From: Candidatus Micrarchaeota archaeon
GTDB lineage: Archaea > Iainarchaeota > Iainarchaeia > JAADDC01
Reading direction: 5' to 3'
Length of the DNA stretch: 64,000 bases
NCBI GenBank assembly: GCA_027046625.1
Contig: JALTXX010000004.1
Coordinates: 1,698 to 65,697 of the forward strand
In this document: piece by piece, positions 11,300 to 63,769 of the stretch
Position numbering within the stretch: the stretch's first letter is position 1
Layout of the letters: every line of letters starts with the position of its first letter
Program-made: the position numbers and the translations under genes
Notes under the pieces: model-generated
What the model was told of the DNA's origin: nothing
The model's input: only the letters and a program-made list of their open reading frames with translations
Databases searched by the model: none

Positions 11300-11308
11300 T
11301 TTTTATAT
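11300..11308 (+). promoter_or_regulatory. Putative TATA box for the oxidoreductase operon
   Basis: TTTTATATATA lies directly upstream of ORF ATG 11311. The spacing suggests a leaderless transcript starting near the in-frame GTG at 11329. Confidence 0.3.
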
Positions 11309-11310
11309 AT

Positions 11311-45326: not shown

Positions 45327-45458
45327 TGGGGCCGCGGGGATTTGAACCCCGGACCTTCGGGTCTCCCCCTATTTAGACCCGAAGCTCTTCATCGGCTGTC
45401 CTCCGCGCTCCAGACAAACGTCTGGAGCCCGACGCGCTGCCAACTGCGCCACGGCCCC
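45327..45458 (-). tRNA. tRNA-Trp (anticodon CCA) with an approximately 59-nt intron
   Basis: Exons: GGGGCCGTGGCGCAGTTGGCAGCGCGTCGGGCTCCAG...ACCCGAAGGTCCGGGGTTCAAATCCCCGCGGCCCC. Intron segment GUCUGGAGCGCG is complementary to the anticodon arm (bulge-helix-bulge context). Confidence 0.8.
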
Positions 45459-47611: not shown

Positions 47612-47954
47612 AGGATGCGTAGAATAGGAGGAGAAGCAATAGAAATGTGCCAGCTCTAAAAAGTATATCATGGAGGAAAGGATCTCCTGTCATTAGCACG
47701 ACAAATATCCTGAAACCATTGTAGAGCTGTATAAGGGTAACTCCAAGGAGAAGAGGTAGTAGCTTGTTCTTCCTTGAGGGATATGACACAATGAATGCGA
47801 TAAAAAGAAATGTTTCGTCAAGAGCCGTGCACTCCCACACGGAGTAGAACCCCTCTGGTAGCACAAGCCACCCAGTGAGGGTTTCCCTGAGGGGAAGGAA
47901 GAGTGTCTCCAGGAGGAGGAATATCACCACTCCCTTGAGGATAAACCGTTCCAT
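47565..47954 (-). CDS. Small polytopic membrane protein (hypothetical)
   Basis: 129 aa with four hydrophobic helices, sitting between map and the pilus ATPase. Confidence 0.35.
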   Translation of the reverse strand: MERFILKGVVIFLLLETLFLPLRETLTGWLVLPEGFYSVWECTALDETFLFIAFIVSYPSRKNKLLPLLLGVTLIQLYNGFRIFVVLMTGDPFLHDILFRAGTFLLLLLLFYASFRYLGPPEPSHHPSQ

Positions 47955-47965: not shown

Positions 47966-50236
47966 GTGTTGGGGTGTAATAAAGTTTATGTGGTTGTGGA
48001 AGTAGAAGGTGGCAAAAGGATACTGAGAATCGATGCCAGAGACTGGCCCACGGGAGGTTCTGTTGTAGACTATCCCGAGAGCATGTTTAGGGTTGTTTCT
48101 GAACTCATGAAGGAAGATGCAGATATTGTAATTGTAACCGACGTTTATGATCATGTATACGGGGAGGACGCCGTAAATATCTTGAAGGAGATTGCAAAAG
48201 TGGGGAAAATCTTCCAATCAGAAGGATACTGGAGCTTCTCTGTAGTAGAGAAATTAGGTAGAGGGTGTGCTAATCCCCTAAAAAATGAACAGGTATGGGT
48301 TGTAAGGGTAACACACGATCTTTGGTTAAGCGATCCTGTAAGGGCTTATCTAGAGGTGCTGAGAAAAATAAAGGGTTACACATCCTTGGATGGTTATCCA
48401 GAGGCTATAAGAAGATGTATAGAGCAATACGTATCCATCCTCAAGAAGATAAAGACTCACATGGAGTCTACAAGGATTATCTCAAAGGTAAGAGAGTACA
48501 TAGCAACCCAGCGACGGGCCCCCGATAGAGGATTCTACAGAACCATCCTTCCCGTCCAAATAAAACCCGCCTTTCTTGGATCGGGTATTATAAGTGGTTT
48601 GGGAGAAGATCTCGAGCTCGTAGACTCCTACACCCTAGAGGGAGATGTGGAAGTATCCATATACAGGGATCCAAACAGTGTAGAGTATTTATACTATCTT
48701 CAAGCACCTGAATTTTCTCTGTCTCCACAACTTTACATGGTATTAGAGAAGGCAAAACAGATGGCAGCAGAGTACACCCCTTCAAGTACCCTCCTAACCT
48801 CCAGATCCTTTGCAAGGCGACAGTTTGAGGAAATGTATATGCAAACCATCATAGATGTGTCCAGACAGATGGGTATTCCTCTAGAAGAGGATGATCTAAG
48901 GCTTCTTTCCTCTATTCTTGCTAGATATACCGTGGGTTATGGTATTCTGGAGCTGTTCTTCTTGGACAGAAACCTAACAGACATATATGTGGATGCACCA
49001 CTAAGTACCAGGCCGGTATATGTACTCCACTCAAGGTACGGCCAGTGTAGAACAAACATTGTATACTCAGAGACGGAAGCAAAGAACTTCGTATCCAAGC
49101 TTAGATCTATGAGCGGAAGACCCTTTGACGAGGCCCATCCTGTTTTGGATTATGATATTCCAGATTTGCACGTAAGAGTAGCCGTTATAGGGCCACCTCT
49201 TTCCCCTGATGGCATTGCCTTCGCATTTAGACTCCACAGACCAACACCTTGGACGCTGCCCCTGTTCCTTGATGTAAATATGTTGACTCCTCTAGCCGCT
49301 GGTCTCTTATCCTTTCTTGTAGACGCCCAATCAACATTGCTCATCTCTGGAAGCAGAGGCTCTGGTAAGACATCTCTCATGACGTCCCTTATACTTGAGA
49401 TACCTCAGAACCAACGCATTCTCGTACAGGAAGACACATTGGAGATTCCCGTGGAAGCTATAAGAAAGCACGGGTATCATATCCAACGCCTAAAGACTAG
49501 GAGTCCTATCGGAGGAGGAGCCGCAGGGGAGGTTCCTCCAGAGGATGCCCTTAGAACAGCCCTCAGGTTGGGAGATTCCGCCATTGTGATAGGAGAGGTG
49601 AGATCTAGAGAGGCGAAGGTACTATACGAAGCCATGAGGGTGGGGGCAGCAGGCAGTACAGTGATGGGAACTATTCACGGTGATTCCGCATATTCTGTGT
49701 GGGATAGAGTGGTCAACGACTTGGGTGTACCCACCACCTCCTTCAAGGCAACGGATGTGGTGGTAGTGAACGCTCCTATTAGATTTGGGGGGTCCCTTAA
49801 AAGGGTAAGAAGAACCATCTCCATAACAGAAGTATTGAAGCATTGGAAGGCAGAACCTTTAGAGGAGGGTGGTTTCCTTGATATTATGAGGTATTCCGCA
49901 GATAGGGATAGATTGGAACTGCTGGAGGATAACGTAAGAAACTCCGAGCTGCTTATGAAGATCGGAAGGCTTAGAGGAATGAGTCCAGAAATGATATGGG
50001 AAGAAATTAGGGCAAGGGGGGAAGAAAAGGCCCTTGTTGCAAGGTTGAGTAGAGAATACAAGGTAAGGGAACTTATGGAAGCGGAGCACTATTCAATTAT
50101 ACATAACAAGTTCCTCCTCCTAAAGGAGCAACAACTGGAAGAGCATGGAGAAGTAGACTACCCCTCCCTCCTCAAGGATCTTGAAAATTGGATAAAGAAC
50201 ACGCTTGTGAGGGAGATCCTTGCCAGGAGAGGCTGA
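47966..50236 (+). CDS. FlaI/GspE-family secretion ATPase with an N-terminal extension of about 200 aa
   Basis: Walker A LISGSRGSGKTS, Asp/His boxes, Walker B region VIGEVRSREA. At 756 aa it is longer than typical FlaI proteins (about 550 aa). Confidence 0.85.
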   Translation: MLGCNKVYVVVEVEGGKRILRIDARDWPTGGSVVDYPESMFRVVSELMKEDADIVIVTDVYDHVYGEDAVNILKEIAKVGKIFQSEGYWSFSVVEKLGRGCANPLKNEQVWVVRVTHDLWLSDPVRAYLEVLRKIKGYTSLDGYPEAIRRCIEQYVSILKKIKTHMESTRIISKVREYIATQRRAPDRGFYRTILPVQIKPAFLGSGIISGLGEDLELVDSYTLEGDVEVSIYRDPNSVEYLYYLQAPEFSLSPQLYMVLEKAKQMAAEYTPSSTLLTSRSFARRQFEEMYMQTIIDVSRQMGIPLEEDDLRLLSSILARYTVGYGILELFFLDRNLTDIYVDAPLSTRPVYVLHSRYGQCRTNIVYSETEAKNFVSKLRSMSGRPFDEAHPVLDYDIPDLHVRVAVIGPPLSPDGIAFAFRLHRPTPWTLPLFLDVNMLTPLAAGLLSFLVDAQSTLLISGSRGSGKTSLMTSLILEIPQNQRILVQEDTLEIPVEAIRKHGYHIQRLKTRSPIGGGAAGEVPPEDALRTALRLGDSAIVIGEVRSREAKVLYEAMRVGAAGSTVMGTIHGDSAYSVWDRVVNDLGVPTTSFKATDVVVVNAPIRFGGSLKRVRRTISITEVLKHWKAEPLEEGGFLDIMRYSADRDRLELLEDNVRNSELLMKIGRLRGMSPEMIWEEIRARGEEKALVARLSREYKVRELMEAEHYSIIHNKFLLLKEQQLEEHGEVDYPSLLKDLENWIKNTLVREILARRG

Positions 50237-52241
50237 ACTGTATAAAAAGCTGTGCACATCAAAGGCCCCAGTTCCCGTCGAGGTAAGGGAGGCTGTAGAG
50301 TTTCTTGAGTGGAAGATTGACCCAGAATGTGTCGGCGGGGCTGCCAGAAAGGGAGCTATCTACGGTTTTCTAGCAGGGCTGGTATTTGTTGTCCTCTACA
50401 TACTTACGTACGCCATGAATTTCGGCTTCGGAGCATTTTTAGAAGCTCTTGTATTTGATATAGCCACGTTAAACCCGTTTACACTGCTTGTATTATTCCT
50501 TCCTATCATTTTAGCATTCATAGCCTACTTTATGCTGCTCTACTATCCCGTCATGAAAAAGGAAGAGGAAATGGGCCAGATTCTCCTTGAACTACCAGAG
50601 GTCATGGGATATGTTGTTCTTTCCCTTAAACTATCTCCCAACCTGGAGAGGGCCCTGTCTTTTGCGGCAGATAACTCTGAGGGAGTTCTAGCAAACCGTA
50701 TAAAGAAGCTTATATGGGAGATGCGCATGGGTGTGTATGCCTCTGCGGAGGAGGCCCTAGATCACCTTATTTACAGGGTAGGAGCCAACATACCGGAACT
50801 AAAACACGCCCTCATGCAAATCAGAGCCTCAACCCTCGAACCCGATGATGCAAGGAGAAACTTCAGGCTGGACAGAGCACTGGATGATATTATAACCTCC
50901 GTAAGGAATAGGTTAGAAGAAAGGGCTTCAAGCATGTACATGCCGTCCATTCAGCTCTTCTACCTTGGTGTATTTTTACCTCTGCTTCTCTTTGTCATCC
51001 TCCCCGTAGCCTCCGCCTTCTCGGATCTACCGCTTGCTACCCTGCCCTCCTTGGTAGCCATTTATATAATAGGGTTGCCCCTCATTATATACATCTTTTC
51101 GCGCTCTATTCTCTCAAAGAGGCCAAACATATACAAACCGCCGGTTCCCCCAAAGGAGAAGGATAGAAAGCATCTATACATAGCGATAGCAGCCGCCATT
51201 GTAGTACTATCAATCTCCTACATCCTACATCTTCAGCTAGATATCACATACGAAAGGGCTGAAGCACTATATTGTGGATATGAAGGATGCCTAAGGGAAA
51301 AATATGGGTTTACTAGCTGGGAAGATGCAAAATACATAGATGAGGTTTCTCAGATACTATCCTCGTATGATACCACCCCATACTGGCTTATATTTGGCGC
51401 GTTGCTCGCTCCCGTGGTTGCAATATCCATATACTTTTTCCTTTCAGAGCGAGCACGCGCCAAAAGAAAGGAAGAGATCATGGAGATGGAAGGAGAGTTT
51501 AAGGACGTCGTATATCTTATGGCTTCCAAAATGGGAGAAGGCAAACCGCTAGAGGGGGCTCTTGAGAGCGTTATAAATCTCATGCCTAATTCCAAGCTTG
51601 TAAGGGAGGTTTTTTCCAAGATACTCTATAACATAAGGGTGATGGGTCTTTCCCTGGGAGATGCTGTATTTCATCCTCTCTTTGGAGCATTAAGGCATAT
51701 TCCTAGTCACTTTCTCAAAAAAGCAACATCTACTGTGGTTAAGTCTGTAGAGCTGGGAACCGAACTAGCTGCAAGAGCACTCATAGCTTTTTCTGACCAG
51801 CTAAGAAAGGAGGAAGAGATTATAAGGATGTTAAGATCTAAAATGGGAGAGATTTATATTATGATTACCTCTATGGTGCTCTTCGTTTCCCCCATCGTGT
51901 TGGGTATTACAGTAGCCCTTCAACAGGTAATTGTAAGCTCTCTCTACTCTGTTGAGGCACCCGAAGTACCCGAAGAGTATGTTTATCAGCTGAACATATC
52001 TGTTCCAAAAATCAATGAGTTGGAAGGTAAGGTGGCGTCCCCGGCGGAATTCCTCACCATAGCGTTCCTTTATAACATCATACTAACCTTTCTCCTCACC
52101 ATCTACTCCGTAAAACTCTACGAAGGGGAGGATCCCATAGCTGTAAGAAGAGCTTTAGCAAGAAATCTTCTCATCTCTTCCCTTCTGTTCATTCTGTCTA
52201 CGTGGGTGTCCCTTTCTATCATAAGAGGTGTAATAGTATGA
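50220..52241 (+). CDS. FlaJ/TadC-like polytopic membrane platform protein (two T2SS-F-like halves)
   Basis: 673 aa with two cytoplasmic helical domains, each followed by transmembrane triplets. Overlaps the ATPase gene by 17 nt. Confidence 0.75.
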   Translation: MPGEAELYKKLCTSKAPVPVEVREAVEFLEWKIDPECVGGAARKGAIYGFLAGLVFVVLYILTYAMNFGFGAFLEALVFDIATLNPFTLLVLFLPIILAFIAYFMLLYYPVMKKEEEMGQILLELPEVMGYVVLSLKLSPNLERALSFAADNSEGVLANRIKKLIWEMRMGVYASAEEALDHLIYRVGANIPELKHALMQIRASTLEPDDARRNFRLDRALDDIITSVRNRLEERASSMYMPSIQLFYLGVFLPLLLFVILPVASAFSDLPLATLPSLVAIYIIGLPLIIYIFSRSILSKRPNIYKPPVPPKEKDRKHLYIAIAAAIVVLSISYILHLQLDITYERAEALYCGYEGCLREKYGFTSWEDAKYIDEVSQILSSYDTTPYWLIFGALLAPVVAISIYFFLSERARAKRKEEIMEMEGEFKDVVYLMASKMGEGKPLEGALESVINLMPNSKLVREVFSKILYNIRVMGLSLGDAVFHPLFGALRHIPSHFLKKATSTVVKSVELGTELAARALIAFSDQLRKEEEIIRMLRSKMGEIYIMITSMVLFVSPIVLGITVALQQVIVSSLYSVEAPEVPEEYVYQLNISVPKINELEGKVASPAEFLTIAFLYNIILTFLLTIYSVKLYEGEDPIAVRRALARNLLISSLLFILSTWVSLSIIRGVIV

Positions 52242-52606
52242 AAGGCCAAGCGTACACACTGTTCAACTACCTCGCATGGGCTGCCTTTTTTGTAGCTGCA
52301 ATAGGGGTTGTGTACATCGTATTCAACAACTCCATAAGACAGGCAACTCCTGTTCCCATCGAAACGATAAACGATGTCCTCCGCAGCGCGGCAGAGCAAA
52401 GAAAGGTAGGTATAGACACCCCTGTATGTGCAGATCTCTACGTTAGCGGTGAAATAACCATTACTAAGGATATTGTGGGAAGATATGGTCTAAATTTGGA
52501 CCTAAAGTGTGAAAACGTAACTTGCAGAGAAGAGGAGGATGGTATAACCATATGGGGCAGTGGGAGATTATGTGTAGAAGGTGGAGTTCTCGTGTGGAAG
52601 CGTTAA
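52238..52606 (+). CDS. Pilin-like protein with class III signal peptide
   Basis: MKG|QAYTLFNYLAWAAFFVAAIGVVYIVF. The ATG overlaps the flaJ-like stop (ATGA). Confidence 0.55.
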   Translation: MKGQAYTLFNYLAWAAFFVAAIGVVYIVFNNSIRQATPVPIETINDVLRSAAEQRKVGIDTPVCADLYVSGEITITKDIVGRYGLNLDLKCENVTCREEEDGITIWGSGRLCVEGGVLVWKR

Positions 52607-52636
52607 TATTTTATATCTCCATCATCTAATAGTGGC

Positions 52637-53050
52637 ATGAAGGGCCAAGCCTTTGAGGTATTCAGGCTTCTCATTGCAGCAGTAATTGGGGGGGCTATCC
52701 TTATGGTATTGTTAGGCATACTTCAGGGCATCATATCACCTACTACAGATCCTCAAACTGCCACAGCCCAGCTTGTAAAGAAAAACTCCAAGTTTGGTGG
52801 TATAGGAACCACAGACGTGATAACTTTCAGAAAGGACATGTACATAGATCTGAGAGCAGTCGCAAGGGAGGCATACCTTGACACGGAATGTGTAAAAGTT
52901 GGAGATGTATTAGAGGGTTTTGAAAAAAAAGATGATAAAGTAATAAGATACGCAGGGACCGGTACAAGGGCAAAGATAATGGTGGAATGCACCGAAAGTG
53001 AAAATAAAAAATGTCCCATCGAGTGTACGGTTTCCATCATCCGTCCTTAA
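52637..53050 (+). CDS. Pilin-like protein with class III signal peptide
   Basis: MKG|QAFEVFRLLIAAVIGGAILMVLLGIL (Glu at +4, as in type IV pilins). Confidence 0.6.
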   Translation: MKGQAFEVFRLLIAAVIGGAILMVLLGILQGIISPTTDPQTATAQLVKKNSKFGGIGTTDVITFRKDMYIDLRAVAREAYLDTECVKVGDVLEGFEKKDDKVIRYAGTGTRAKIMVECTESENKKCPIECTVSIIRP

Positions 53051-53190
53051 AAGGGATGAACGTTTAATATTAGCATGAGAGCAGGTGGAGACTGGAATGT
53101 TATATACCTCCTTGTGGTAGCTATTGTGGCAGCCCTGCTTATTTTCGGGGTGATAAAGCCATCCATGGCTAAAGGGTACAGGGTGGTCAA

Positions 53191-53694
53191 ATGAGGGGTG
53201 TGGAGGCACCCTTCCAATTGGTAGTATCTGTTGTAACCATCCTGTTTGTGCTATACCTTTCCTACATGGTTATATCCAATGCCATACGGGAGGATTGTTC
53301 CAAGAAGATAGATATCCAGCTTAGGAACATTGCAACCACCGTTTCCACAGCTGTGTATTCATCTCCTCCCACTAAACTCATGGAAAGGTTCGACTTTAGG
53401 TGTGGGGGGATGGTAGGGGACTACTATGTTAGTGTTAAGGGTTCTTCCAACGAAACCGAATGTCTTAGAGTGTGCGGATATTCATATAGTGGGCAATGTG
53501 TATATCTTATCCTTGAGGTAAGGAGGGGAGAGGAGGTTCTAAATAGATCCTATGCCTGTATAGAGGGAGCGGTACCCTCCCACAACATAACAATAAATGG
53601 CGGTAAAGATAAAGTAAAGGTGTCTCCACCCTATGGGAGTGTAGAAATAGAAAAAACAGAGGATGGGATTACCTTGCGGTGGAACAGAAGGTGA
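53191..53694 (+). CDS. Pilin-like protein (class III-like signal)
   Basis: MRG|VEAPFQLVVSVVTILFVLYLSYMV, 167 aa. Confidence 0.5.
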   Translation: MRGVEAPFQLVVSVVTILFVLYLSYMVISNAIREDCSKKIDIQLRNIATTVSTAVYSSPPTKLMERFDFRCGGMVGDYYVSVKGSSNETECLRVCGYSYSGQCVYLILEVRRGEEVLNRSYACIEGAVPSHNITINGGKDKVKVSPPYGSVEIEKTEDGITLRWNRR

Positions 53695-53698
53695 AAGA

Positions 53699-54181
53699 AT
53701 GTTAGATTACATACTCTCAAGGCTGATGCTCCTTATATTTCTTCTCCTCATTGTGGGTACCATTGTTTCTTACAAAGACTTCCTTGGGGATATGTTTGCC
53801 TCTGCAGGAGCCAAATCCTTGGTGCTAAAGGTAGGAGAGAAGATTAGAAGCATTGCTCTAAGCCTTACTGTTACCAGCGCTGAGGAAGCCATCAGATTGC
53901 CGTCCTATATAAGATCTGGGCCTGTAAGGCTGGATTACAATATGGTATTTGGGTGTAACGGTAGTGAACTAGGCATAGGAGTAAAATCCACCAGAGGAAA
54001 CCTTCTATACTTCAAAACATGGAACCTAAAACCCTCTGATAGAGGCATAAAGATCCGGATTCCAAAAAACGACGTAGAGGCGGGGGATATTCTTTATATT
54101 AAGAAATCTTCCACCCTAAGTGAGGTAACCCTCACCATAAAGCCAAGGAATGGGGAAGTGAGAACATGCCAAGCCTCATAG
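53699..54181 (+). CDS. Small N-terminally anchored protein (possible minor pilin)
   Basis: MLDYILSRLMLLIFLLLIVGTIVSY, then a beta-rich body. Start taken at an internal Met. Confidence 0.4.
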   Translation: MLDYILSRLMLLIFLLLIVGTIVSYKDFLGDMFASAGAKSLVLKVGEKIRSIALSLTVTSAEEAIRLPSYIRSGPVRLDYNMVFGCNGSELGIGVKSTRGNLLYFKTWNLKPSDRGIKIRIPKNDVEAGDILYIKKSSTLSEVTLTIKPRNGEVRTCQAS

Positions 54182-54543
54182 ATATGGGTGCCATTATACC
54201 CATTGTAATGGCCCTTCTACTTTTCTTCGGAACGCTAGTGTATACCATAAATACGATAGAGGAGAAAAACAAGAAAATGGAGCTACTATTTGCCCTCTTC
54301 GAGGTATCCAACATGCTAACAGAGAAGGGTGTGGTTACAGACGAATGGATTGAAAAGGTTAAGGAAACGTTAGAAAATGATGATTACGAGTTTTGTATAG
54401 AGAAGAGAGGAGAAAACACATGCGAAGCACGGTCGCCCACCTATATAAGCCTTGAGTTTCCTGTTTCCTTCCAAACAAATAAAGATGGAATTCCATTCAA
54501 TGAGATAAGAGTCCTAAAGGTGGTAGTATGGCCAAAGGTATAG
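54166..54543 (+). CDS. Small N-terminally anchored protein (possible minor pilin)
   Basis: MPSLIDMGAIIPIVMALLLFFGTLVYT, 125 aa. Confidence 0.4.
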   Translation: MPSLIDMGAIIPIVMALLLFFGTLVYTINTIEEKNKKMELLFALFEVSNMLTEKGVVTDEWIEKVKETLENDDYEFCIEKRGENTCEARSPTYISLEFPVSFQTNKDGIPFNEIRVLKVVVWPKV

Positions 54544-55046
54544 CTGCAGTGTTTGATGCGGTATTCCTCCTCATTATTGCTTCCATAGCCTCCGGCATAC
54601 TACTTTCTGTAACATACGGATATGGGTCTTCCTTTGAAAGACATGCAAAGGGTGTACTCATGAATTACTATGCTAAACAGGTGGTAAAGGCCCTTGTAAC
54701 GGCCTCTATAGAAAGAGACGGAGTTCCAGACTACCTCCTGTCCTACCTCAAGGAAAGTATAGAGGCTGGGAGAGATATGACAGAATTGGAGAATATGCTG
54801 AAAGATATTGTTACAAAGGCTATGGAGCCTGTAAGAGATAGATATGACTATGTGGTATCTCTGAAAACAGAGAATGGCAGCATATTCATCTGCAACGACA
54901 ACATTATTGAAAACGACCCCTTGGATAACTACTTCGGCCCAAGGTACAGCTCCAGTACAAAGATATACATGGATATAAAAGGAAGGTACGTTCCCATTAC
55001 CATTACGGTTACCCTCACTCCTCGAGGGATTTTAGAATGTCCATAA
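54528..55046 (+). CDS. Pilin-like protein with class III signal peptide
   Basis: MAKG|IAAVFDAVFLLIIASIASGILLSV, 172 aa. Confidence 0.5.
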   Translation: MAKGIAAVFDAVFLLIIASIASGILLSVTYGYGSSFERHAKGVLMNYYAKQVVKALVTASIERDGVPDYLLSYLKESIEAGRDMTELENMLKDIVTKAMEPVRDRYDYVVSLKTENGSIFICNDNIIENDPLDNYFGPRYSSSTKIYMDIKGRYVPITITVTLTPRGILECP

Positions 55047-55875
55047 CGTCTTCTTCCTTCTTTTCTTCCCCCTCCTCCTCAAGCAGAGATAGAAGGTCGT
55101 CTTCCTTCTTCTTTTTGGCTCCTTCCTTCCTCTCCTCCTTATTCTCTACCATAACACTCCCGAAGATTTCTGGAAATATGTCATCTGCCACCTTAGAAAT
55201 ATAATCTTCCCTTCTAGGATCCCTTCCATCCTTTATTTCATGCATAAAGAAGTCTACTATTACCTCTGCATGTTCTTTCATATAGCTTCTTACCTTCCTT
55301 CTGGACATAGCAAGCTCTTTGAAGCTTATTCTACCCTCTTCTCTCATCTTTTCCTCCACCCTCTTCATGAGCTCTCTCTCTAGATGGGAATACGCCACCT
55401 TTACCATCTTCTCTATCTCCGCCTTGGAAAGGGGTCGTTTTTTTGGAACCTCCTTCGTTTTTTCCTTCTGTTCTTCCTTCTTTTCCTTTTCCTCTTCTCT
55501 CTTTTCTTCTCTACCACTTGCCTCTTTTTCCCCCGTAGTTTCTTGCTGCTTCTCATCCTCTTTCTTTTCTCCCCCTTTCTCACCTCCGGCCTCCTTCTTT
55601 CTCTCCAAAACAACTTCCTCTCTCCTCTCCTTCTTATCCTCTACAGGAGGCAGAGACGCATACTCCCTTAGATTATTTACCACCTCCATAAACAACCTTA
55701 TCTCATCCAACTCATCTGTCTCCTTAACTTTTGCAACCCTTTCCCTCCTCTCCTGCTTCACCTTCTGGGATCCAAAGCTAAACTCTTCCACCTGAATAGC
55801 TTTGTCCTTCTTCACCTCCTTCCTAGGTTCCTTCTTACCTCTCCCAAAGAGGGATAGCAAACGCTGCAGCATCAT
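55015..55875 (-). CDS. E/K-rich low-complexity protein (hypothetical)
   Basis: 286 aa with a long KE/EK repeat core and ordered termini. Convergent 32-nt overlap with the last pilin-like gene. Confidence 0.45.
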   Translation of the reverse strand: MMLQRLLSLFGRGKKEPRKEVKKDKAIQVEEFSFGSQKVKQERRERVAKVKETDELDEIRLFMEVVNNLREYASLPPVEDKKERREEVVLERKKEAGGEKGGEKKEDEKQQETTGEKEASGREEKREEEKEKKEEQKEKTKEVPKKRPLSKAEIEKMVKVAYSHLERELMKRVEEKMREEGRISFKELAMSRRKVRSYMKEHAEVIVDFFMHEIKDGRDPRREDYISKVADDIFPEIFGSVMVENKEERKEGAKKKKEDDLLSLLEEEGEEKKEEDVMDILKSLEE

Positions 55876-55906
55876 CCTTTAACACGTTCTCCTCCTATAA
55901 ATACTT

Positions 55907-56305
55907 ATGGATCTCCTTTCACCCATCATTCCATCCATTATCCTTGGAACCATCTTCTATATTTTCAAAAACCATACACCATACCTTATTCCTATAGCAA
56001 TCTCAATAATCTGGTTCTTCTATATCATATACGGATTTGGAGCGTGTCCTTTGCCGCCGCCCCATATAGAACTAACATGCAATTTTGATATAAGCATACT
56101 TTATGGGGCGGCGGCATCCTCAGCAGCAGTGGGCATCATCTCTTTTGTGTTTACAGCCGTGGGCGTGGGGATTTTTAGGTGGATAAAGGTGAAGAACCTG
56201 TGGGTAAGATATGTGGTGAGCACTTATATTACACTTCTACTCTTACAGTTATGGGTGGTGGTGTTTCCATGGACCATAGAACTCTTGTATGGATTCTTCT
56301 CATAG
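55907..56305 (+). CDS. Small polytopic membrane protein (hypothetical)
   Basis: 132 aa with four hydrophobic helices, immediately upstream of the giant surface protein. Confidence 0.35.
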   Translation: MDLLSPIIPSIILGTIFYIFKNHTPYLIPIAISIIWFFYIIYGFGACPLPPPHIELTCNFDISILYGAAASSAAVGIISFVFTAVGVGIFRWIKVKNLWVRYVVSTYITLLLLQLWVVVFPWTIELLYGFFS

Positions 56306-59300
56306 GAAGCATGGCCTACGGAAACATAATGTGTGAAGTGGTAGAGGATGGAGATATTTCAAAGCTCATAATCAACACTGTATACAGAGAGGACGGTATA
56401 CATCCCTTCTCCTCCATTACTACAAATTCCCAGGAGGGAGAACAGATAGATGTGGATTCCATGGTATTGGTAGATGGTGAGGGAAGGGCATATGATGTGG
56501 AAGTGGGCAAGGAGGCAGCCCCCGTGGAGAATACCATCCTGGGAGGAAGTTACTATGAGGGCCCCTTTGTGGTGACCTATCTTCTTTCTGACACCCTTCG
56601 CATCGCGAAGGTCGGTGTCCACTCCTACGGAGAGGGTGCCCTTCTTAGGGAGCGTTTTGAAGGCACTTATGGGATATCCCTCTATGAAACACTAAAAAAC
56701 ATCGCAAAGAACATCAAGGAGTTCGTATTCTTTGTGAATGAACAAACACCTCCCATAAATAACGTTATAAACGCCGAGAACTTTTCTGCAAGTGTTGTAT
56801 GTGCATCATCTTCCTGTAAAAAAGAGCTGTACTCATTGCTTACTAAGTATATGAATCTGGGGGCGTCCTCCGAGATGGCCGTGGAGTTTCTAAACTTTAA
56901 GTTTGTGATAGGTCCTGCAAAGAGGGCAGCTGAAGGTGCATTAGCCTTAGGGAAGATTTCAGTTCCCGAATCCAAGTTTGTAGAAGGGTTGAAGAACAAG
57001 CTTAGAGCTCTGAACTTTTTTGGGAGAAAACAGTTAGAGGAGGCAAAAAACCTGTTCAAGGGACTATCTGACGGTGAGAAAGAGGCCATAAAAGGTATTT
57101 TAGATTCGCCTTCTGAATGGTACGCGCACACCGGAAAGCTTTCCCTTCAAGGAAAGACAGCAGCCTACATATTTACAAAGGAGCTCAAGAACGTAAAGTT
57201 CGAGAAGCTTATCGTAGAGGAGGGAGGAAAGAAGTACCTACTTGTAAACAAATTGGAGGAAGCTATAAAGAATATGGAGGAGTTCGGAAAGAAGGTAGGC
57301 GATATACAGAGTTTGACGGGATCTGAAAGACTAAAGGAGATGAAGCAGCTGGCAGATAGTGTAAAGAAAACGCTTGAACAGATAAAAAACAATGTAAAAA
57401 ATAAGAATATAGAAAAAATACCGTTAAAGGAGCTTGCAAGCCAGCTCAAAGGAAAGGTAAAACTAGAGGATCTAGAGAAGATAAAACAACTGAGAGAAAT
57501 GCTGGATGACTACAGCAGCATTGTAAGAAACTTGGAAGACAAGGTACCCCTTGTTCTATCTCAAGCGGATCTCATAGGCGATGAGATGGAGAGGATGCTA
57601 TCAAAAGAATCTGGGAGCAGAACAGGCAGGGCTCTTGTTGCCAAGGGCGTTGCCACACCCCTTATGTTCTATCTTACAAGAACCACCCCCCTCCCCCCTG
57701 ATGTCACCTTTGAGGGTATTAACTCTAACCTCTCAAAAATCTTTCCCGTAAAGAGGGCGTACCAGATACCAAGCAGCTGGACTACCATGGATTTGAAACC
57801 TTCTAACATGGAAGGGGTATTTATGGATGTCCTCATAGGGCATGGAAGCGATCCTGGAAACATATTTAGGAGCATCCTTACCATCTTACCAATAGGGCTC
57901 ATCGACAGGGTTATAACGAGTGTTACAGGCTCTAATCCCCTCGATATTGTAGATATGATACCCGATCCTGAGGATGAAGAACTATACAGGATGAAAGATG
58001 CTGTGGTAATGCTGGCAACCACCAACAACTGCCAAACATGTTACATAGAGGACGGGAAAAGCTTCTCAGGTCCAAAGCTCTTCCTCTCTCTAACAGAGAA
58101 CCAGAGAGAAAAATCTACCCTTATAACCTTCTTTAGAAGGATGGACCTTATCGCAGATGGAAAGAGGCTCATTGATACGAGTAACAGCGAAAACTTATGC
58201 TCCCAGAAATGTTTTCTTGTAAGAAATATGACAGAGGCCTCCGGCAAGGAACCATTTGCTGCCCTTTTCTTGCACGGATTACTCATAGGATATGTGGTAC
58301 CGTCCTTTGGCGGTTTAACGCTCACCCTTATCATATCTGCGGCTACCTCTCCCGTCTTTGCAGATTGTTTCACATGCACAGATACCACATTTGGATACTA
58401 TCTTCATGTATTGAGTTTCTCGCCTCCCAAAGAAGAGGAACCCATGCCTGTAGACAAGGTAAAGGCCGCGGTAGAACAATTGGGTGTAGATATTAAGCAG
58501 GTTGAGGAGTGGATTTCCAGTTACAAGAAAGGGGAAATAGAGAAGCAAAGATCTATGTTGTATTCCACACTCACCAACGCCAAAGGTAAGATGGAGGGAC
58601 TTGTTATCAGTATATGGACAAAACCGTCCTTTTCTATGCCCACAAGATTCAAAGGTGGGGTAGAACTCTCCACAGAGGATGGAGAAAAGCTTCGTATCGA
58701 TGAAACCACGGTAACATCCAAGGATGGTTCTGTTACAGCTCCCGGGGCCGGCATATCAACGGTAGAAACGGAAATACCAGGTATGATCGTGCCTACAAAC
58801 CTCTCCCGAGTAAATCTATCCTCTATTTCCCTGGAGGTAACATCCCAGGAGAATTATATTATTGGGGAGGCGCTTCAGCAGTGTTTAAGCGTTGAGCCTG
58901 GTAGAATAAAGCTCGTAAAAGCAGAAAAGGGAAGTATAAAGGTAGAAGAGGATGGTTTGTACGTTACAAGTGATGATTATGTAGGGCCTGCAAGCAAGAT
59001 AACAGTGGAGAATGGAATTGTTAGGGCAACAGTAACTGACATAACACCAGAAGGAATAACACAGAAGGACATAGAGCTCGGAAAGCTTATTTCAATAGTA
59101 TTTGAGAGGGTATCTGTTGTTTCAAAGGGTGACAGTGCCTATGTATGGAACAAAGGCGACTCCGTTCCCCAAGAAAGTGTGGAAGATGCTGATTTGGAAA
59201 CAGATGGAGAAAGCGTCTCCCTCAGTATAACTCCATCTTCAGATGCAACGAGGGAGGAGGTAAAGACCATAGATAAGGGAGAGGAGATGTTAGATGATAT

Positions 59301-59832
59301 TCAGGCTATCGATGCATCAAAAACCACCGTAGCAATAAGGGAAGGAAAGGACGGAGAACAGTACTTAACTATCTACAACAAGGAAGATGGTTCTGTTACC
59401 AACGAGAAGATTGTGGACATGAAATCCGAAAATGGAGAGCTCGTTGTTACAACCGTGGATGAGAAAGGTAATGAAAAAGTACACAGAATAAGACTTGAAG
59501 TAACATCGGATGGTACACCTACCCTCAAGGTGGACGGAAAGGATGGAGGTATTGTCAAGACAGTTCAGTCCAAGGAGGGCTTCATGTGGTACAACCCAAA
59601 AACGGGTGAGTGGAATTTTGTAAATGGTGTACTTGCACCCCTGTCTGAGGCATTTAAGGAAGGTATGAAGATCGCCTTTGAAGGAGGTAAGGCGGTGGCA
59701 AAACCATCAGGCAACATCATTGTAAATGCTCCGCCCTCTCAGGGCATGTCTCTCCCATCCCTTGGAGAGTGGATACTGCCCCTACTAGCAATAGTTATCC
59801 TACTAATGCTCTATCAAGGATCACGACAGTGA
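56269..59832 (+). CDS. Large secreted surface protein (about 1187 aa) with C-terminal transmembrane anchor. Possible adhesin or S-layer-like
   Basis: Signal-peptide-like MDHRTLVWILLIGSMAYG|N, a long T/V/E/K/G-rich beta-type body, and C-terminal SLGEWILPLLAIVILLMLYQGSRQ. The ORF-track start at 56179 is probably an upstream extension. Confidence 0.65.
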   Translation: MDHRTLVWILLIGSMAYGNIMCEVVEDGDISKLIINTVYREDGIHPFSSITTNSQEGEQIDVDSMVLVDGEGRAYDVEVGKEAAPVENTILGGSYYEGPFVVTYLLSDTLRIAKVGVHSYGEGALLRERFEGTYGISLYETLKNIAKNIKEFVFFVNEQTPPINNVINAENFSASVVCASSSCKKELYSLLTKYMNLGASSEMAVEFLNFKFVIGPAKRAAEGALALGKISVPESKFVEGLKNKLRALNFFGRKQLEEAKNLFKGLSDGEKEAIKGILDSPSEWYAHTGKLSLQGKTAAYIFTKELKNVKFEKLIVEEGGKKYLLVNKLEEAIKNMEEFGKKVGDIQSLTGSERLKEMKQLADSVKKTLEQIKNNVKNKNIEKIPLKELASQLKGKVKLEDLEKIKQLREMLDDYSSIVRNLEDKVPLVLSQADLIGDEMERMLSKESGSRTGRALVAKGVATPLMFYLTRTTPLPPDVTFEGINSNLSKIFPVKRAYQIPSSWTTMDLKPSNMEGVFMDVLIGHGSDPGNIFRSILTILPIGLIDRVITSVTGSNPLDIVDMIPDPEDEELYRMKDAVVMLATTNNCQTCYIEDGKSFSGPKLFLSLTENQREKSTLITFFRRMDLIADGKRLIDTSNSENLCSQKCFLVRNMTEASGKEPFAALFLHGLLIGYVVPSFGGLTLTLIISAATSPVFADCFTCTDTTFGYYLHVLSFSPPKEEEPMPVDKVKAAVEQLGVDIKQVEEWISSYKKGEIEKQRSMLYSTLTNAKGKMEGLVISIWTKPSFSMPTRFKGGVELSTEDGEKLRIDETTVTSKDGSVTAPGAGISTVETEIPGMIVPTNLSRVNLSSISLEVTSQENYIIGEALQQCLSVEPGRIKLVKAEKGSIKVEEDGLYVTSDDYVGPASKITVENGIVRATVTDITPEGITQKDIELGKLISIVFERVSVVSKGDSAYVWNKGDSVPQESVEDADLETDGESVSLSITPSSDATREEVKTIDKGEEMLDDIQAIDASKTTVAIREGKDGEQYLTIYNKEDGSVTNEKIVDMKSENGELVVTTVDEKGNEKVHRIRLEVTSDGTPTLKVDGKDGGIVKTVQSKEGFMWYNPKTGEWNFVNGVLAPLSEAFKEGMKIAFEGGKAVAKPSGNIIVNAPPSQGMSLPSLGEWILPLLAIVILLMLYQGSRQ

Positions 59833-60181: not shown

Positions 60182-60806
60182 CCAAATGATCTTCCTCGGG
60201 GGGAGACAGTACGAGGTCGTCTACATCTACCTCTATACCGGTAATCCTTCCGACCTCAGAGACAAGGCGAGGAGCGGCACTGATATCCTTCCTTCCCGAT
60301 GTAGGTCCCAGCAGCAGCAATACAGGTACGTTTCTTTCTCTGCCGAGAAGGAGTAGTGAAGCTGTTACACCTGTAACCACTCCATTTTCTATGGGTCTAA
60401 GATGACCTGCAAACTTTCTGGCAGATTCATTAGATGCTATCACATAAACATCCTCCGAGGAGGGGGATAACACACCGCTTAAAACTACCACTAGCTTGGC
60501 CCCATCTTTCCATGCCTTTTCCATAATGGTATGGGCTACCTCCCAGGATAGATCCTCGGGGATGGGAACATCGGAGAGAATGGCATGTACATTGGAGCGA
60601 GAAAACACGTTTATAGGATAGTATATTCTACCCTTCTTCACCCTTCCTATGGGAGGTAGTCTACGCGAGAAGAGGTACCCTGTCCATTTGAAGCCTCCTC
60701 TTTCTACGTAATATCTTAGGGATATGTTTCCCACCAGTCCCAATCCAGGAAATGAGATGAGAAGTATGCCATCACGAAAGCTTGCTCCAGTTCTTAGCTG
60801 TACCAT
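60162..60806 (-). CDS. PAC2-family (proteasome assembly chaperone-like) protein
   Basis: N-terminal ILLISFPGLGLVGNISLRYYVE and C-terminal ASLLLLGRERNVPVLLLLGPTSG resemble PAC2/PbaB-family signatures. 214 aa. Confidence 0.55.
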   Translation of the reverse strand: MVQLRTGASFRDGILLISFPGLGLVGNISLRYYVERGGFKWTGYLFSRRLPPIGRVKKGRIYYPINVFSRSNVHAILSDVPIPEDLSWEVAHTIMEKAWKDGAKLVVVLSGVLSPSSEDVYVIASNESARKFAGHLRPIENGVVTGVTASLLLLGRERNVPVLLLLGPTSGRKDISAAPRLVSEVGRITGIEVDVDDLVLSPPEEDHLDVSMYG

Positions 60807-61552
60807 ACTATCACCATATACACACCCATAGCTACAAGGCTTCCCACAAGGATATAGACGGGTATGTTTTTAGGCTTCCTCTCCAAAGCTCCTACAAAGA
60901 AACCACTAATAGATACTAACAGAAGCAAATACACCAACACCACCTCTCCAATCGACCCTCCCATCCTCTCTACTAACTTCGTTACAAACCCTAGCACAAT
61001 GGGAACCAAAAGGAAAGAGGAAAGAAGGATGGAATATCTCTGAAGGGATAGGGTAGATAACTTTTCCCTTTCCGTCTCGCCTACCACGTAAAGCTCCTCT
61101 GAAAGGTTTTTCAGAAGTTGAGGAGCAGTACCTGCTCTAAAGGCTTCTATAATACTTGTTATAGCCCTTTCTATGAGAGAAGAATCCCATCTCTCGTATA
61201 GTGTCCTCAAAGCCCTAAGAGGTGGGATACCCTTCTCTACCATCCTCTCTACAGATTCAAGCTCCTTTGAGAGCTCTCCGAATCCTTTTCTTCCCAAGGA
61301 TATAAGCGCTTTTGGAGTAATAGAAGGGTACGTAGCTGCTGTGTGCACCCATCTGGGGAGTTCTTCCTCTATACGTTGCTTCTTCCTTTCATAGAAGTAC
61401 ACTATAGAGATAAAGGACAATATAGGAACTAGAATAGCATAAAACCCGAACAAAAGATACGTAGAAGCAGTTAGCAGTATAATTACTGCAACAACATTCC
61501 TTTCATCCCACCCAAGAGTATCCAGCATCTTCATACTACCACTTCCTAGCAA
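60794..61552 (-). CDS. TadC/TadB-like T2SS-F-domain membrane protein
   Basis: 252 aa with an N-terminal transmembrane helix, a cytoplasmic helical domain, and two C-terminal transmembrane helices. Overlaps neighbours by 13 to 17 nt. Confidence 0.6.
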   Translation of the reverse strand: MLGSGSMKMLDTLGWDERNVVAVIILLTASTYLLFGFYAILVPILSFISIVYFYERKKQRIEEELPRWVHTAATYPSITPKALISLGRKGFGELSKELESVERMVEKGIPPLRALRTLYERWDSSLIERAITSIIEAFRAGTAPQLLKNLSEELYVVGETEREKLSTLSLQRYSILLSSFLLVPIVLGFVTKLVERMGGSIGEVVLVYLLLLVSISGFFVGALERKPKNIPVYILVGSLVAMGVYMVIVWYS

Positions 61553-62300
61553 TGTATACCAACATCACCACCGTGGCCATGGGGAGCACGATATAAAGGG
61601 TAAAATAAAGTATTCTCACATCCTGGGGCGTACCAAAAACGATAGGAAGTATGTGGGTATAGATGATTAGTATAGAGGGAACAAGAGCTGTTAATGCAAT
61701 AAACATAAGCGTATAAAGTGATAGTTTAGAGCTAAATTCTCTTATCTCAAGCTTTTTAGTCATTAAAAGGGAGTCTGCGTATCTCTCGAGTGCTTCCCAC
61801 CCTGTACCTCCCTCTATCACTTCCGATAGCATTTCTAGGGTCTTTCTAACACTATCAGACGTGTATGTAGAGGCTTCTCCTTCCAAGGCCCTTTTTAGAG
61901 GCAGCCCTCCTTTATGTAGGGAGAGGATTCTCTTCATGCTGTTTTCTATGTATTTTCTTCCCTTAGATGCTATTTCCATCCCCCTTATAGGATCAATGCC
62001 AGACCTTACGAGCGTGGAAAGGGATTTTAGGAAGAAGGGAAGCTCCCACTCTGCTACTCTGCCTCTAATATGGGAAAGAAGGATGGGCAGGTAAAGGGAT
62101 ATGCTAAATATGGATAGGGACAGCATAATCGCAAGGATAGGATCTACGAACACAAGAAGGAGGGGAAGAATGGAGAGAATAAAAGCATAGCCTAGATAGT
62201 CTTCCGGTGAAATAGAAATATCTGCGTTTCTTAGGTGTCTTCCTATTCTTCTTTTCATATCCTCGCTGAAGAGTGCTCCTATTCTCCACATCTCCAACAT
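61536..62300 (-). CDS. TadB/TadC-like T2SS-F-domain membrane protein
   Basis: 254 aa with the same topology as its neighbour. This split arrangement is the bacterial Tad pattern. Confidence 0.6.
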   Translation of the reverse strand: MLEMWRIGALFSEDMKRRIGRHLRNADISISPEDYLGYAFILSILPLLLVFVDPILAIMLSLSIFSISLYLPILLSHIRGRVAEWELPFFLKSLSTLVRSGIDPIRGMEIASKGRKYIENSMKRILSLHKGGLPLKRALEGEASTYTSDSVRKTLEMLSEVIEGGTGWEALERYADSLLMTKKLEIREFSSKLSLYTLMFIALTALVPSILIIYTHILPIVFGTPQDVRILYFTLYIVLPMATVVMLVYIARKW

Positions 62301-63769
62301 GTATAACGCCTCGCAAAAGTCTCAAGATCGTAAACGGGATTGTTTTTGAGGAATGTTACTCTCTCTTCAACATCGTCAAGGGACTCATTGGATACAAGCT
62401 CTACCACCCTTCTTACAATCCTTCCACCTTCTCCCCACCTTCTTACAACCACAACCACATCTATAGAGTCGAGATCTTCCTTTCTTACGCCCATACTTAC
62501 AAGCCTCGAAAGTACCTCCTTTACGGATCTTCCATGCATGGTAGTGTAGCTGCCCCTCCCCTGACCCGCAAGAACGGTATCCATATAGGCCTCTGCCTCC
62601 TCATCCTTTCTTATCTCTCCCACAATAACCCTATCTGGTCTCATACGAAGGGTATCCCTTATAAGATCCTTCATGCTAACACCAGAAACCACCATCCTGA
62701 CAAAATGGGGGTGTGGAATGTTTATCTCCGGCACCTCCTCCACCGCAATAACCCTTTCATCTAGGGGAACAAATCCCATAAGGGCATTGAGAAGTGTTGT
62801 CTTGCCGGATCCTGTATTGCCTGCAATAAGTATATTTAGCTCCCTCTCTATGGCAGCCCATAGAGTGGCTGCCTGCCCATAGGAGATGGATCCGCTCTCT
62901 ATAAGGGAAGATATGGTTAGGGGAGATTCTCTAAACCTTCTTACTGTAATAGAATGCACATTAGAGATAGGCGGTATAACTGCATGTATACGCGAGCCGT
63001 CCTCCAATATTGCATGCATTCTAGGTTCTTTTATGCTAATAAGCCTTCCCATCTTTTCTCCTGCTCTGTTTACAAGGTTCAGGAAGTACTCCTCCGTCCA
63101 TATGTAGATGTTTGTTTCTCTCCATCCCTTTCCTCTTTCATACACCATTACCGGTCTTTTTAGACCTACCACAACAATCTCCTCTATATTGTCCCCTTTT
63201 ATAAGGTTTAGAGGCCCCAGAGGGCTTAATGTGATATCCACTATCCACTCTACCCTTTCCTTAGTCCTCTCTGGTATGGAGAGCTCCTCTGAGAGGTCAT
63301 CTAATATTTCTTCGATGGAGTATTCTCCCTTCGTTCTCTGATAAATGTCTATTACTTTCCTTGCCACCCTTGCTTCCCAGGGAAGAATAGGCATCTCACT
63401 TACAATTCCATTATCCGTCAAAACCCATCCAATTTCATTTCCCACCTCCTCCATGTCTTTTTCCTCCAAAATAACTGTTATCTCGTCTCCACCCCTCTCC
63501 TTGCATATGGGATAACCTCTTTCTACACACATATCACACTTATACAGCCCATCCCTCCAAAACAGAGCATTATATGGACATAAAACAACATCATCGGGGT
63601 TTCCACCTTCTGCGCACAGAACCCCCTTTACACACTCAAATATCCCATCACTTCTGGCACAGGGAGCTTCAGGTGGATCACAGTGGATGCATCTTATCAC
63701 TCTTTCATCATGATAGGGGCATACCCTCCTGATGATATTCTTCCCCTCTTCTGTAGCCTCTATCCTCAT
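62279..63769 (-). CDS. VirB11/TadA/FlaI-family secretion ATPase with N-terminal cysteine-rich domain
   Basis: Walker A IAGNTGSGKTT, Asp/His boxes, Walker B RVIVGEIR. The N-terminal 100 aa carry 10 Cys (CPYHDERVIRCIHCDPPEAPC...CVKGVLC...CPYN...CDMCVERGYPIC). Confidence 0.8.
   Translation of the reverse strand: MRIEATEEGKNIIRRVCPYHDERVIRCIHCDPPEAPCARSDGIFECVKGVLCAEGGNPDDVVLCPYNALFWRDGLYKCDMCVERGYPICKERGGDEITVILEEKDMEEVGNEIGWVLTDNGIVSEMPILPWEARVARKVIDIYQRTKGEYSIEEILDDLSEELSIPERTKERVEWIVDITLSPLGPLNLIKGDNIEEIVVVGLKRPVMVYERGKGWRETNIYIWTEEYFLNLVNRAGEKMGRLISIKEPRMHAILEDGSRIHAVIPPISNVHSITVRRFRESPLTISSLIESGSISYGQAATLWAAIERELNILIAGNTGSGKTTLLNALMGFVPLDERVIAVEEVPEINIPHPHFVRMVVSGVSMKDLIRDTLRMRPDRVIVGEIRKDEEAEAYMDTVLAGQGRGSYTTMHGRSVKEVLSRLVSMGVRKEDLDSIDVVVVVRRWGEGGRIVRRVVELVSNESLDDVEERVTFLKNNPVYDLETFARRYTCWRCGE

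Follow-up and report, generated by a model that had tools for sequence, protein, structure and literature searches.

Sortases, exosortases, and archaeosortases act on C-terminal signals of a common tripartite layout, in which a short motif is followed by a transmembrane (TM) helix and by basic residues (PMC6098224). According to this 2018 review, the catalogue of archaeosortases was confined to some of the Euryarchaeota, and experiments on archaeosortase-dependent anchoring were limited to ArtA in Haloferax. The only experimentally studied envelope protein of a DPANN archaeon that we found is SLP_Mh of Micrarchaeum harzensis (bioRxiv 10.1101/2021.04.28.441871), and our literature search found no paper linking archaeosortases to DPANN lineages. 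Here, we describe a 64,000-nucleotide stretch (the window) from a Candidatus Micrarchaeota archaeon, a member of the DPANN, in which the gene for a giant surface protein lies between two type IV filament (TFF) loci and the gene for a miniature exosortase/archaeosortase-family protein stands at the head of the same cluster. By analogy with ArtA, we give an even chance to the reading that the giant protein is a dedicated archaeosortase substrate, which would make it an envelope or adhesion protein with a lipid anchor rather than a filament subunit.

The C-terminal motif of the giant protein and a candidate processing enzyme

An earlier note on the window, made from its letters and predicted reading frames, had described an open reading frame (ORF) of ~1,190 residues with a signal peptide and a C-terminal hydrophobic helix ending in a short tail. 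The ORF proved intact: on the plus strand it is uninterrupted over 56179..59832 counting from the first GTG, and the ATG at 56269, preceded by the Shine-Dalgarno-like run GGTGGTGGTG, yields a protein of 1,187 amino acids (56269..59832) in which the three peptides quoted by the note (TVENGIVRATVTD, TSDGTPTLKVDGKDGGIV, and LLAIVILLMLYQGSRQ) are all present. Because it spans ~1,200 codons in DNA of 45% GC, the ORF is not due to chance. Hydropathy analysis identified three hydrophobic regions, at residues 6-25, at residues 662-701, and in a C-terminal helix (~1167-1186) with the tail GSRQ. The signal peptide and the conserved TM anchor bear out the description of a secreted, C-terminally surface-anchored protein: it is a type-I envelope protein, Sec-targeted and anchored on the cell surface by its C terminus, and its ectodomain has no detectable relatives.

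The C terminus of the window protein reads SLPSLGE-W-ILPLLAIVILLMLY-QGSRQ. Taken alone, this sequence agrees with the note's statement that there is no obvious PGF-CTERM or sortase motif, but comparison across the family revealed L-P-S-L-P-E immediately before the TM helix. In nearly all C termini of 53 homologues, (F/L)-N-L-P-S-L-P-E-(N)-x-x leads into a hydrophobic helix that is followed by R/K-rich residues. Among 84 aligned homologues with an overall identity of ~20%, the motif columns are occupied by L or I in 80/83, P in 81/83, S in 56/83, L in 49/83, the second P in 66/83, and E in 53/83. Linker and motif together form the best-conserved segment of this alignment (28.9% versus 15.9-27.9% elsewhere), and a further alignment (A7, also ~20% overall identity) has just 17 invariant columns, among them Pro1163, though it lies in a linker that AlphaFold2 (AF2) models as disordered. 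The C-terminal TM anchor is present in every member of the family, while the LPSLPE-type motif is restricted to the giant protein within the window and all 21 loci that we fetched from relatives (L numbers below; P numbers denote proteins). To judge from the sequences, the motif, the predicted TM helix, and, in most members, the basic residues are arranged in three parts like the signals of sortases, exosortases, and archaeosortases, and we propose by analogy that (N)LPSLPE may serve as an archaeosortase recognition motif. One other product of the window, a 296-aa protein without a Pfam match (26110-27000, minus strand), has a single C-terminal TM helix; without an LPxLxE motif, it does not stand out as a second archaeosortase substrate.

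A candidate for the enzyme is encoded at 47565..47954. Its product passes the TIGR04178 exo_archaeo signature of NCBIfam (E=2.8e-9, 37.2 bits, cutoff 23), and a Pfam scan of this 129-aa ORF gave no match. Orthologues occupy the same divergent position upstream of the first filament ATPase gene (ATPase1) in L003 (42.3 bits), L019/P0120 (32.9 bits), and L020 (23.9 bits, against the same cutoff of 23), so that an archaeosortase-family gene was found at the head of the cluster in 4/4 loci that reach this position. L020 represents a lineage whose giant protein is only ~28% identical to that of the window, yet the archaeosortase gene is kept. Cys42 (in WECT), Arg82 (in NxxRI), and His95 (in LHD) are invariant in a three-orthologue alignment (A6), and the same three motifs are readable in the L020 copy. 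We take these to be the catalytic positions (compare PMC6098224). None of the named subfamily models (ArtA, ArtD, ArtE, XrtF, G, H, M, X, Y, and heimdallarchaeosortase) reached its cutoff. The best partial matches of the window protein were to XrtH, XrtX, and XrtY, and scores across the orthologues were 24-38 versus a cutoff of 170 for XrtX and 8.6-21.8 versus 125 for ArtD. With no named model near its cutoff, the protein is an unclassified and unusually small member of the superfamily. We propose, again by analogy, that it may be the processing enzyme for the giant protein.

In the scheme that we envisage, the giant protein would be held by its TM helix after Sec export. The cluster-encoded mini-archaeosortase would recognize the LPSLPE-type motif and cut off the helix, and the new C terminus would be transferred to a membrane lipid, as for ArtA and the PGF-CTERM signal of the Haloferax S-layer glycoprotein. 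The product would be a lipid-anchored surface protein with its conserved beta domain (residues 1011-1148) next to the membrane and its fast-evolving helical stalk and distal domains pointing outward, and it would be the principal anchored protein of the envelope, or for adhesion, working next to the cluster's two filament machines.

Family, ectodomain, and predicted structure of the giant protein

The window is archaeal, since an archaeal signal recognition particle RNA lies inside it, and it is ordinary chromosome, with genes for tRNA synthetases, POR, Suf proteins, and Na+/H+ exchangers and an even GC content of 42-49%. Full-length orthologues of the giant protein (1,160-1,355 aa, 23-36% identity) occur in at least 10 other assemblies. 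A word-indexed search had returned one other cluster, at 33% identity, and two clusters in total even with a 12-sequence profile, while an exhaustive HMMER search recovered 107 family representatives (cluster representatives at 50% identity). These include about a dozen full-length relatives in the size range just given and ~80 proteins of 1,450-1,730 aa that have the C-terminal 150-250 residues and several other stretches in common with it. One homologue carries the name '[Candidatus ainarchaeum sp.]', and the GTDB-representative genomes with a giant gene are titled Candidatus Iainarchaeum or Micrarchaeota metagenome-assembled genomes; NCBI taxonomy places Iainarchaeum in the phylum Iainarchaeota of the kingdom Nanobdellati, i.e., the DPANN. 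The giant family is one of DPANN archaea of the Iainarchaeota type.

Sequence searches of the giant protein against Pfam, NCBIfam, and the PDB gave no match beyond a meaningless one of 19.7 bits to SA0570. No Pfam match recurred among 33 family members tested, and a 53-member family profile found no sequence relative in the PDB. Scans of metagenome and viral contigs matched neither the giant protein nor the archaeosortase, and a first genome scan was likewise negative. In the protein collections searched, neither the giant family nor the small archaeosortase-like ORFs had been given a functional name by the source or a precomputed Pfam domain, the sole named member of the giant family being labeled 'hypothetical protein'.

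At the N terminus, homologues show A-x-A-like cleavage sites followed by a conserved Cys, which as Cys22 is invariant in alignment A7. We rejected a lipobox at this position, as the preceding residues do not match [LVI][ASTVI][GAS]C in most family members, and we rejected a class III (prepilin) signal, given the Sec-type N terminus with its A-x-A-like sites. A first AF2 run with four sequences reached a predicted local distance difference test score (pLDDT) of 29.5; the model used here (ma4c76a7ceb4d), run with 53 homologues, has a mean pLDDT of 81.4 and a predicted TM-score (pTM) of 0.77. Its segments are listed in the table. They bear on the note's picture of a T/V/G/E/K-rich body with repeated beta-like segments. 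The composition fits only the C-terminal third; residues 191-470 are K/L/E-rich and helical (K16/L14/E12 percent over residues 231-450), and residues 495-720 form a Cys-containing alpha/beta domain. The repeats hold up structurally, as beta-hairpins that AF2 predicts across residues 762-1146, but not in sequence, where profile-profile comparison of the beta segments found no significant repeat (best probability 25%).

Conservation is highest in the last beta domain (residues 1011-1148), with several conserved Gly, Pro, and Trp, and in the linker and motif, and it is lowest in the helical region. Conserved across the family are C22, R111, Y188/S189, D520, G526-S-D-x-G530, C588xxC591, E610, C644, C703/D705, G709-Y-Y, H713, and C872. 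Foldseek searches with the model against the PDB and BFVD found nothing at E<=1e-3; the weak matches were to beta-propellers, OspA-like sheets, and AhlC, with very poor TM-scores. No recognized S-layer domain was found in the giant protein (TIGR01564/TIGR01567 in NCBIfam, S-layer families in Pfam). The note had called N-x-S/T sequons numerous; five are present where composition predicts 7.0, and the median observed/expected ratio over 78 homologues is 0.985.

A conserved supercluster around the giant gene

The note had placed the giant gene between a pilus-like and a Tad-like locus, and this placement is correct. On one side lies a T2SSE/T2SSF locus with pilin-like genes (47966..55046, plus strand) and on the other a T2SSE locus with two T2SSF genes (60794..63769, minus strand). 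Using tblastn of 18 window genes against the fetched loci, together with called genes, we found a gene order extending over ~16 kb: ATPase1, platform 1, pilin-like genes, a variable minus-strand gene, a small membrane ORF, the giant gene, DUF473, PAC2, two T2SSF genes, and the second filament ATPase gene (ATPase2). This order is kept wherever the contig extends far enough (L003, L004, L007, L008, L011-L014, L020, and L021), in at least nine loci, including a distant lineage with other flanks, and it is found even where the giant protein is no more than 23-25% identical. In the distant L007, where the giant protein is 25% identical, the cluster lacks DUF473 and contains an inserted riboflavin kinase gene, and its outside flanks are different. 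The genomic link between the giant gene and both filament loci is genuine and deep-rooted. ATPase1 is 50-71% identical in syntenic loci versus 23-36% for the giant protein, which therefore evolves much faster than the motors. We also checked the arCOG01314/arCOG02884 'novel secretion system' (PMC5898192), which is unrelated.

Table 1. Features of the giant protein and its gene cluster in the window; residue numbers are those of the 1,187-aa giant protein.
Feature	Position	Strand	Basis and remarks
Mini exosortase/archaeosortase-family membrane protein	47565..47954	-	129 aa, ~4 TM; divergently upstream of ATPase1
Type IV filament ATPase 1 (756 aa)	47966..50236	+	Pfam T2SSE 7e-20; NCBIfam FlaI/TadA-like below equivalog cutoffs
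Polytopic platform protein 1 (673 aa, T2SSF/TadC-like)	50220..52241	+	Pfam T2SSF 9.9e-7, two stretches
Six small pilin-like genes	52202-52606, 52637-53050, 53191-53694, 53663-54181, 54166-54543, 54528-55046	+	
K/E-rich 286-aa protein, presumably cytoplasmic	55015..55875	-	ORF; no Pfam/NCBIfam match
Small 4-TM membrane protein (132 aa)	55907..56305	+	Four hydrophobic segments; no Pfam/NCBIfam match
Giant protein: Sec-type signal peptide	56269..56331	+	Residues 1-21; hydrophobic 6-25; model helix 3-16; Cys22 next
Giant protein: ectodomain	56332..59715	+	Residues 22-1149 (~1,140 residues); AF2 model, conserved columns
Giant protein: pre-anchor motif S-L-P-S-L-G-E	59749..59769	+	Residues 1161-1167; family consensus N-L-P-S-L-P-E
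Giant protein: C-terminal TM helix, tail GSRQ, and stop codon	59773..59832	+	Helix ~1169-1186 (AF2); Kyte-Doolittle maximum 2.08
Signal helix	residues 3-16		AF2
Beta-rich domain	residues 22-190		AF2
Variable helical stalk, long helices	residues 190-470		AF2, low to medium confidence
Cys-rich alpha/beta domain	residues ~495-720		AF2, pLDDT >90 over much; two helices at 662-702
Motifs of the alpha/beta domain	D520, GSDPG526-530, C588xxC591, C644, C703-D705, GYY709-711, H713		
Helices	residues 728-760		AF2
Membrane-proximal all-beta region (~390 residues)	residues 762-1146		AF2, pLDDT 91-98; many beta-hairpins
Low-confidence (flexible) linker	residues 1151-1165		AF2
DUF473 gene	59795-60181	-	Pfam DUF473 2.5e-21
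PAC2-family (proteasome-assembly-chaperone-like) gene	60162-60806	-	Pfam PAC2 3.3e-25
Two T2SSF-type half-platform genes (split TadB/TadC-like)	60794..62300	-	Pfam T2SSF 1.8e-6, 5.6e-10
Type IV filament ATPase 2 (496 aa)	62279..63769	-	Pfam T2SSE 1.9e-34; FlaI/TadA-like NCBIfam matches

The gene directly 5' of the giant gene encodes a small polytopic membrane protein and overlaps the giant start by 37 nt. A small polytopic membrane ORF on the same strand directly precedes the giant gene in L001, L003 (9618-10034), L006 (331-741), L020 (9558-10037), L021 (9449-9988), and L007 (9540-10130). These 4-5 TM proteins usually overlap the giant start, and close relatives share a C-terminal LQLWVxVFPWT motif. 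In L007, the database start of the giant homologue P0019 looks miscalled (10001-10204), since its signal peptide MNKNFAQKFSVLLVLFLLLNSSFAFA begins ~68 codons downstream, and the stretch before that point overlaps a 5-TM ORF in another frame; with the start placed there and this ORF directly 5' of it, the pair of small membrane protein and giant protein is conserved there too. The 4-TM protein is probably a co-translated partner of the giant protein.

In the plus-strand filament locus, platform 1 is syntenic in L003, L007, L011-L014, and L020. The six small pilin-like ORFs have no Pfam family, their orthologues keep the same order in other loci, and 4/6 have class III-like N termini of the K/R-G| type (MKG|QAYTLF, MKG|QAFEVF, MRG|VEAPFQ, and MAKG|IAAVFD) followed by a hydrophobic helix. 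Whether the K/E-rich protein encoded between this locus and the membrane ORF belongs to the system is uncertain: it has relatives (38-40% identity) in L003 and L006 only, and different minus-strand genes occupy its slot in other loci. The 31 nt that separate the divergent starts 55875 (minus) and 55907 (plus) contain a TATAAATA box (55896-55903); its position suits the K/E-rich gene and is too near the annotated plus-strand ATG.

The minus-strand locus is an operon of ATPase2, two half-platform T2SSF genes, PAC2, and DUF473, with overlapping starts and stops. Its split platform is a hallmark of the archaeal TFF system/clade 1 (bioRxiv 10.64898/2026.04.22.720090; PMC4858521). ATPase2 is 41-61% identical in syntenic loci. 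Its N-terminal ~100 residues form a Cys-rich extension, and the orthologues in L008 (16278-17825) and L020 (16595-18130) match the 4Fe-4S ferredoxin families Fer4, Fer4_7, and Fer4_11 of Pfam; it is unusual for a type IV filament ATPase to carry a fused Fe-S domain. DUF473 and PAC2 are the final two genes of the operon, which runs toward the giant gene and overlaps its 3' end. The pair adjoins the giant gene in L001, L003, L006, L008, L011-14, and L020, and PAC2 alone does so in L007, which hints at an accessory role for these two cytoplasmic proteins in the filament machine. The giant gene itself is transcribed apart from both ATPase operons.

In relatives, the immediate surroundings of the supercluster encode two more giant proteins of surface type. 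In L020, a 2,507-aa Big_1/CarboxypepD_reg protein (1-17 and upstream, contig JBMYCP010000005.1) is the neighbor of the archaeosortase gene, and L019 encodes a protein of >1,340 aa after histidyl-tRNA synthetase (8513-12535, minus strand). Elsewhere in the window, a tRNA match (45327-45458, minus strand) spans 132 nt versus 71 positions in the Rfam tRNA model, which points to a long insertion, presumably an intron. A large, uncharacterized 681-aa protein (6082-8127, minus strand) has sub-threshold matches only, to the coiled-coil-type Pfam families Baculo_PEP_C, Prominin, ATG17_like, and DUF948.

Competing readings and comparison with known systems

We were concerned that several observations weigh against the giant protein as an archaeosortase substrate. 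Its cleavage and lipidation are suggested purely by analogy. When the full protein and eight isolated C termini were compared with the NCBIfam CTERM models at E<=10, none matched (the described signals considered were PGF-, PEF-, PEP-, and VPXXXP-CTERM, LPXTG, and others). In the window protein, Gly replaces the second Pro (LPSLGE) and a single Arg follows the helix, and its closest relatives, P0002 and P0005, end straight after the helix without a basic residue. A basic cluster after the helix is found in most distant ~1,500-aa members. With the tail of the window clade reduced, the canonical tripartite form is weakest exactly where the archaeosortase gene is seen; for the distant group with the canonical NLPSLPE, TM helix, and R/K residues, the fetched loci end short of the archaeosortase position, and a search for archaeosortase-like ORFs elsewhere in the distant L007, L008, and L011 found none in loci that end before the expected position. 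The archaeosortase and giant genes are in separate operons with 8.3 kb between them. Among closer relatives, the outside flanks are conserved as well, and the conserved gene order could be in part the general synteny of small genomes. Some of these points also favor a plain TM-anchored surface protein, a reading that we regard as rather unlikely. Here the helix would be a permanent anchor, LPSLPE would be a structural membrane-proximal hinge or a contact site, e.g., for the upstream 4-TM partner, and the mini-archaeosortase would act on proteins encoded elsewhere in the genome. The unclear basic tails of the window protein and its closest relatives and the failure of every known CTERM model fit this account, as does the small membrane protein encoded in overlap with the giant start, which could bind the anchor region; moreover, our view of possible substrates covers 64 kb of the genome, and further archaeosortase substrates are possible. 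It accounts less well for a near-invariant Pro and a conserved L-P-x-L-P-E in a disordered linker, set before a TM helix and a basic tail in the layout of a sorting signal, for an archaeosortase gene that stays with the cluster wherever this can be tested, and for a tail of this kind on no other protein of the window or of any fetched locus.

The earlier note had suggested a cargo, tip adhesin, or sheath component of one of the two type IV filament systems; on this reading, that system would export or assemble the protein. The deeply conserved position between two TFF loci is consistent with such a role, and large adhesin-like proteins are known in archaeal clade-1 type IV pilus (T4P) loci (PMC4858521). 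We nevertheless consider it very improbable, as the protein has a Sec-type signal with A-x-A-like cleavage sites and no class III signal peptide, neither a DUF2341/PilY1 domain nor any recurrent Pfam match was found in 33 members, and neither ATPase operon includes the gene, which is transcribed on its own and converges on one of them. Because every member keeps its C-terminal membrane anchor, the usual routes of polymerization into, or release by, a type IV filament machine are closed to the protein. A membrane-active protein, whose helical bundle and hairpin at residues 662-702 would insert into a putative host membrane as a pore or fusion device and help the DPANN cell connect to that host, also appears improbable to us. 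Many DPANN archaea live attached to a host (PMC5498576), the distal parts of the giant protein evolve fast, and the glycine-rich hairpin is a hydrophobic element in an otherwise soluble ectodomain (Kyte-Doolittle maximum 1.97). The model also gave a weak Foldseek match to the soluble form of AhlC, a component of a ClyA-family alpha-pore-forming toxin (prob 0.80, E=1.3e-2), but this match is not significant (TM-score 0.21, root mean square deviation 27 A) and may reflect long helices alone, and no Foldseek match to archaeal fusexins or viral fusion proteins was obtained. In the family as a whole, the hairpin shows no more than moderate hydrophobicity (the 19-residue Kyte-Doolittle maximum has a median of 1.375 and exceeds 1.6 in 18/82) and contains conserved E and Q; we therefore judged true TM segments unlikely, and the sequences make a buried hairpin more likely than a membrane-spanning one.

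If the giant protein is indeed an archaeosortase substrate, the locus may represent an undescribed sorting system of Iainarchaeota-type DPANN archaea, in which a ~130-aa archaeosortase subfamily and an 'LPSLPE-CTERM' serve one giant substrate within a lineage-wide ~16-kb supercluster that includes the 4-TM partner; for this larger proposal as a whole, we put the chance somewhat below even. Such a dedicated mini-archaeosortase with a new signal would extend archaeosortase sorting to another archaeal superphylum, and one ~130-aa enzyme with one substrate would make a minimal archaeosortase model. The supercluster would then be the core cell-surface apparatus of the lineage, and possibly its host-contact apparatus. 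In tiny-genome DPANN cells, surface machinery is thought to mediate host contact, and the giant protein, conserved in the lineage, without Pfam or PDB relatives, and encoded between two filament machines, is a candidate key envelope or contact component.

A close parallel is the S-layer glycoprotein of Haloferax volcanii with its enzyme ArtA. It too is a large Sec-exported surface protein with a motif and a TM helix at its C terminus, followed by basic residues as in most members of the giant family, and its genome likewise has a polytopic enzyme of the exosortase/archaeosortase family in which Cys, Arg, and His residues are present (PMC6098224). The motif there is PGF and here (N)LPSLPE, and the giant protein differs from the glycoprotein in having neither a known S-layer domain nor an enrichment in sequons. 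ArtA has roughly 300 residues; the enzyme here has 129, and its L003 copy scores 16.2 bits against an ArtA cutoff of 75. Here, moreover, a single dedicated substrate apparently lies inside a TFF supercluster. XrtH, XrtX, XrtY, XrtM, ArtD, and ArtE are likewise miniature enzymes around the TIGR04178 core, with NCBIfam models of 150-168 positions. The proteins described here are shorter still (129-138 aa) and score 24-38 bits against cutoffs of 86-170, and their candidate cognate motif is unlike those described. From Haft's work, small dedicated exosortase/archaeosortase systems are said typically to serve one or a few targets encoded nearby.

Other large archaeal surface proteins resemble the giant protein in part. 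The 'S-layer-like' proteins of archaeal T4P loci (Makarova, Koonin, and Albers 2016, PMC4858521) are large and secreted, have a C-terminal TM helix and conserved cysteines, and adjoin ATPase, TadC-like, and pilin genes, but they belong to other families, in Thermoproteales and Halobacteria, to which the giant protein shows no arCOG-derived Pfam or NCBIfam relationship, and the available part of that paper proposes no archaeosortase link for them. SlaB, the S-layer stalk of the Sulfolobales, which are without archaeosortases (PMC6098224), combines a C-terminal TM anchor with beta domains and a long helical or coiled-coil segment, according to the same review. The domain order differs, as the giant protein has its helical segment distal and a beta domain at the membrane, and SlaB has no sequence or Foldseek similarity to it. 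SLP_Mh is also large with an N-terminal signal, but it has TIGR01564/TIGR01567 domains and many glycosylation sites, whereas the giant protein lacks these domains and has sequons at chance level; a C-terminal TM helix is not described for SLP_Mh (bioRxiv 10.1101/2021.04.28.441871). What is new relative to these systems is an archaeosortase subfamily and a candidate signal in DPANN archaea, tied to an uncharacterized giant family for which neither sequence nor fold relatives were detected.

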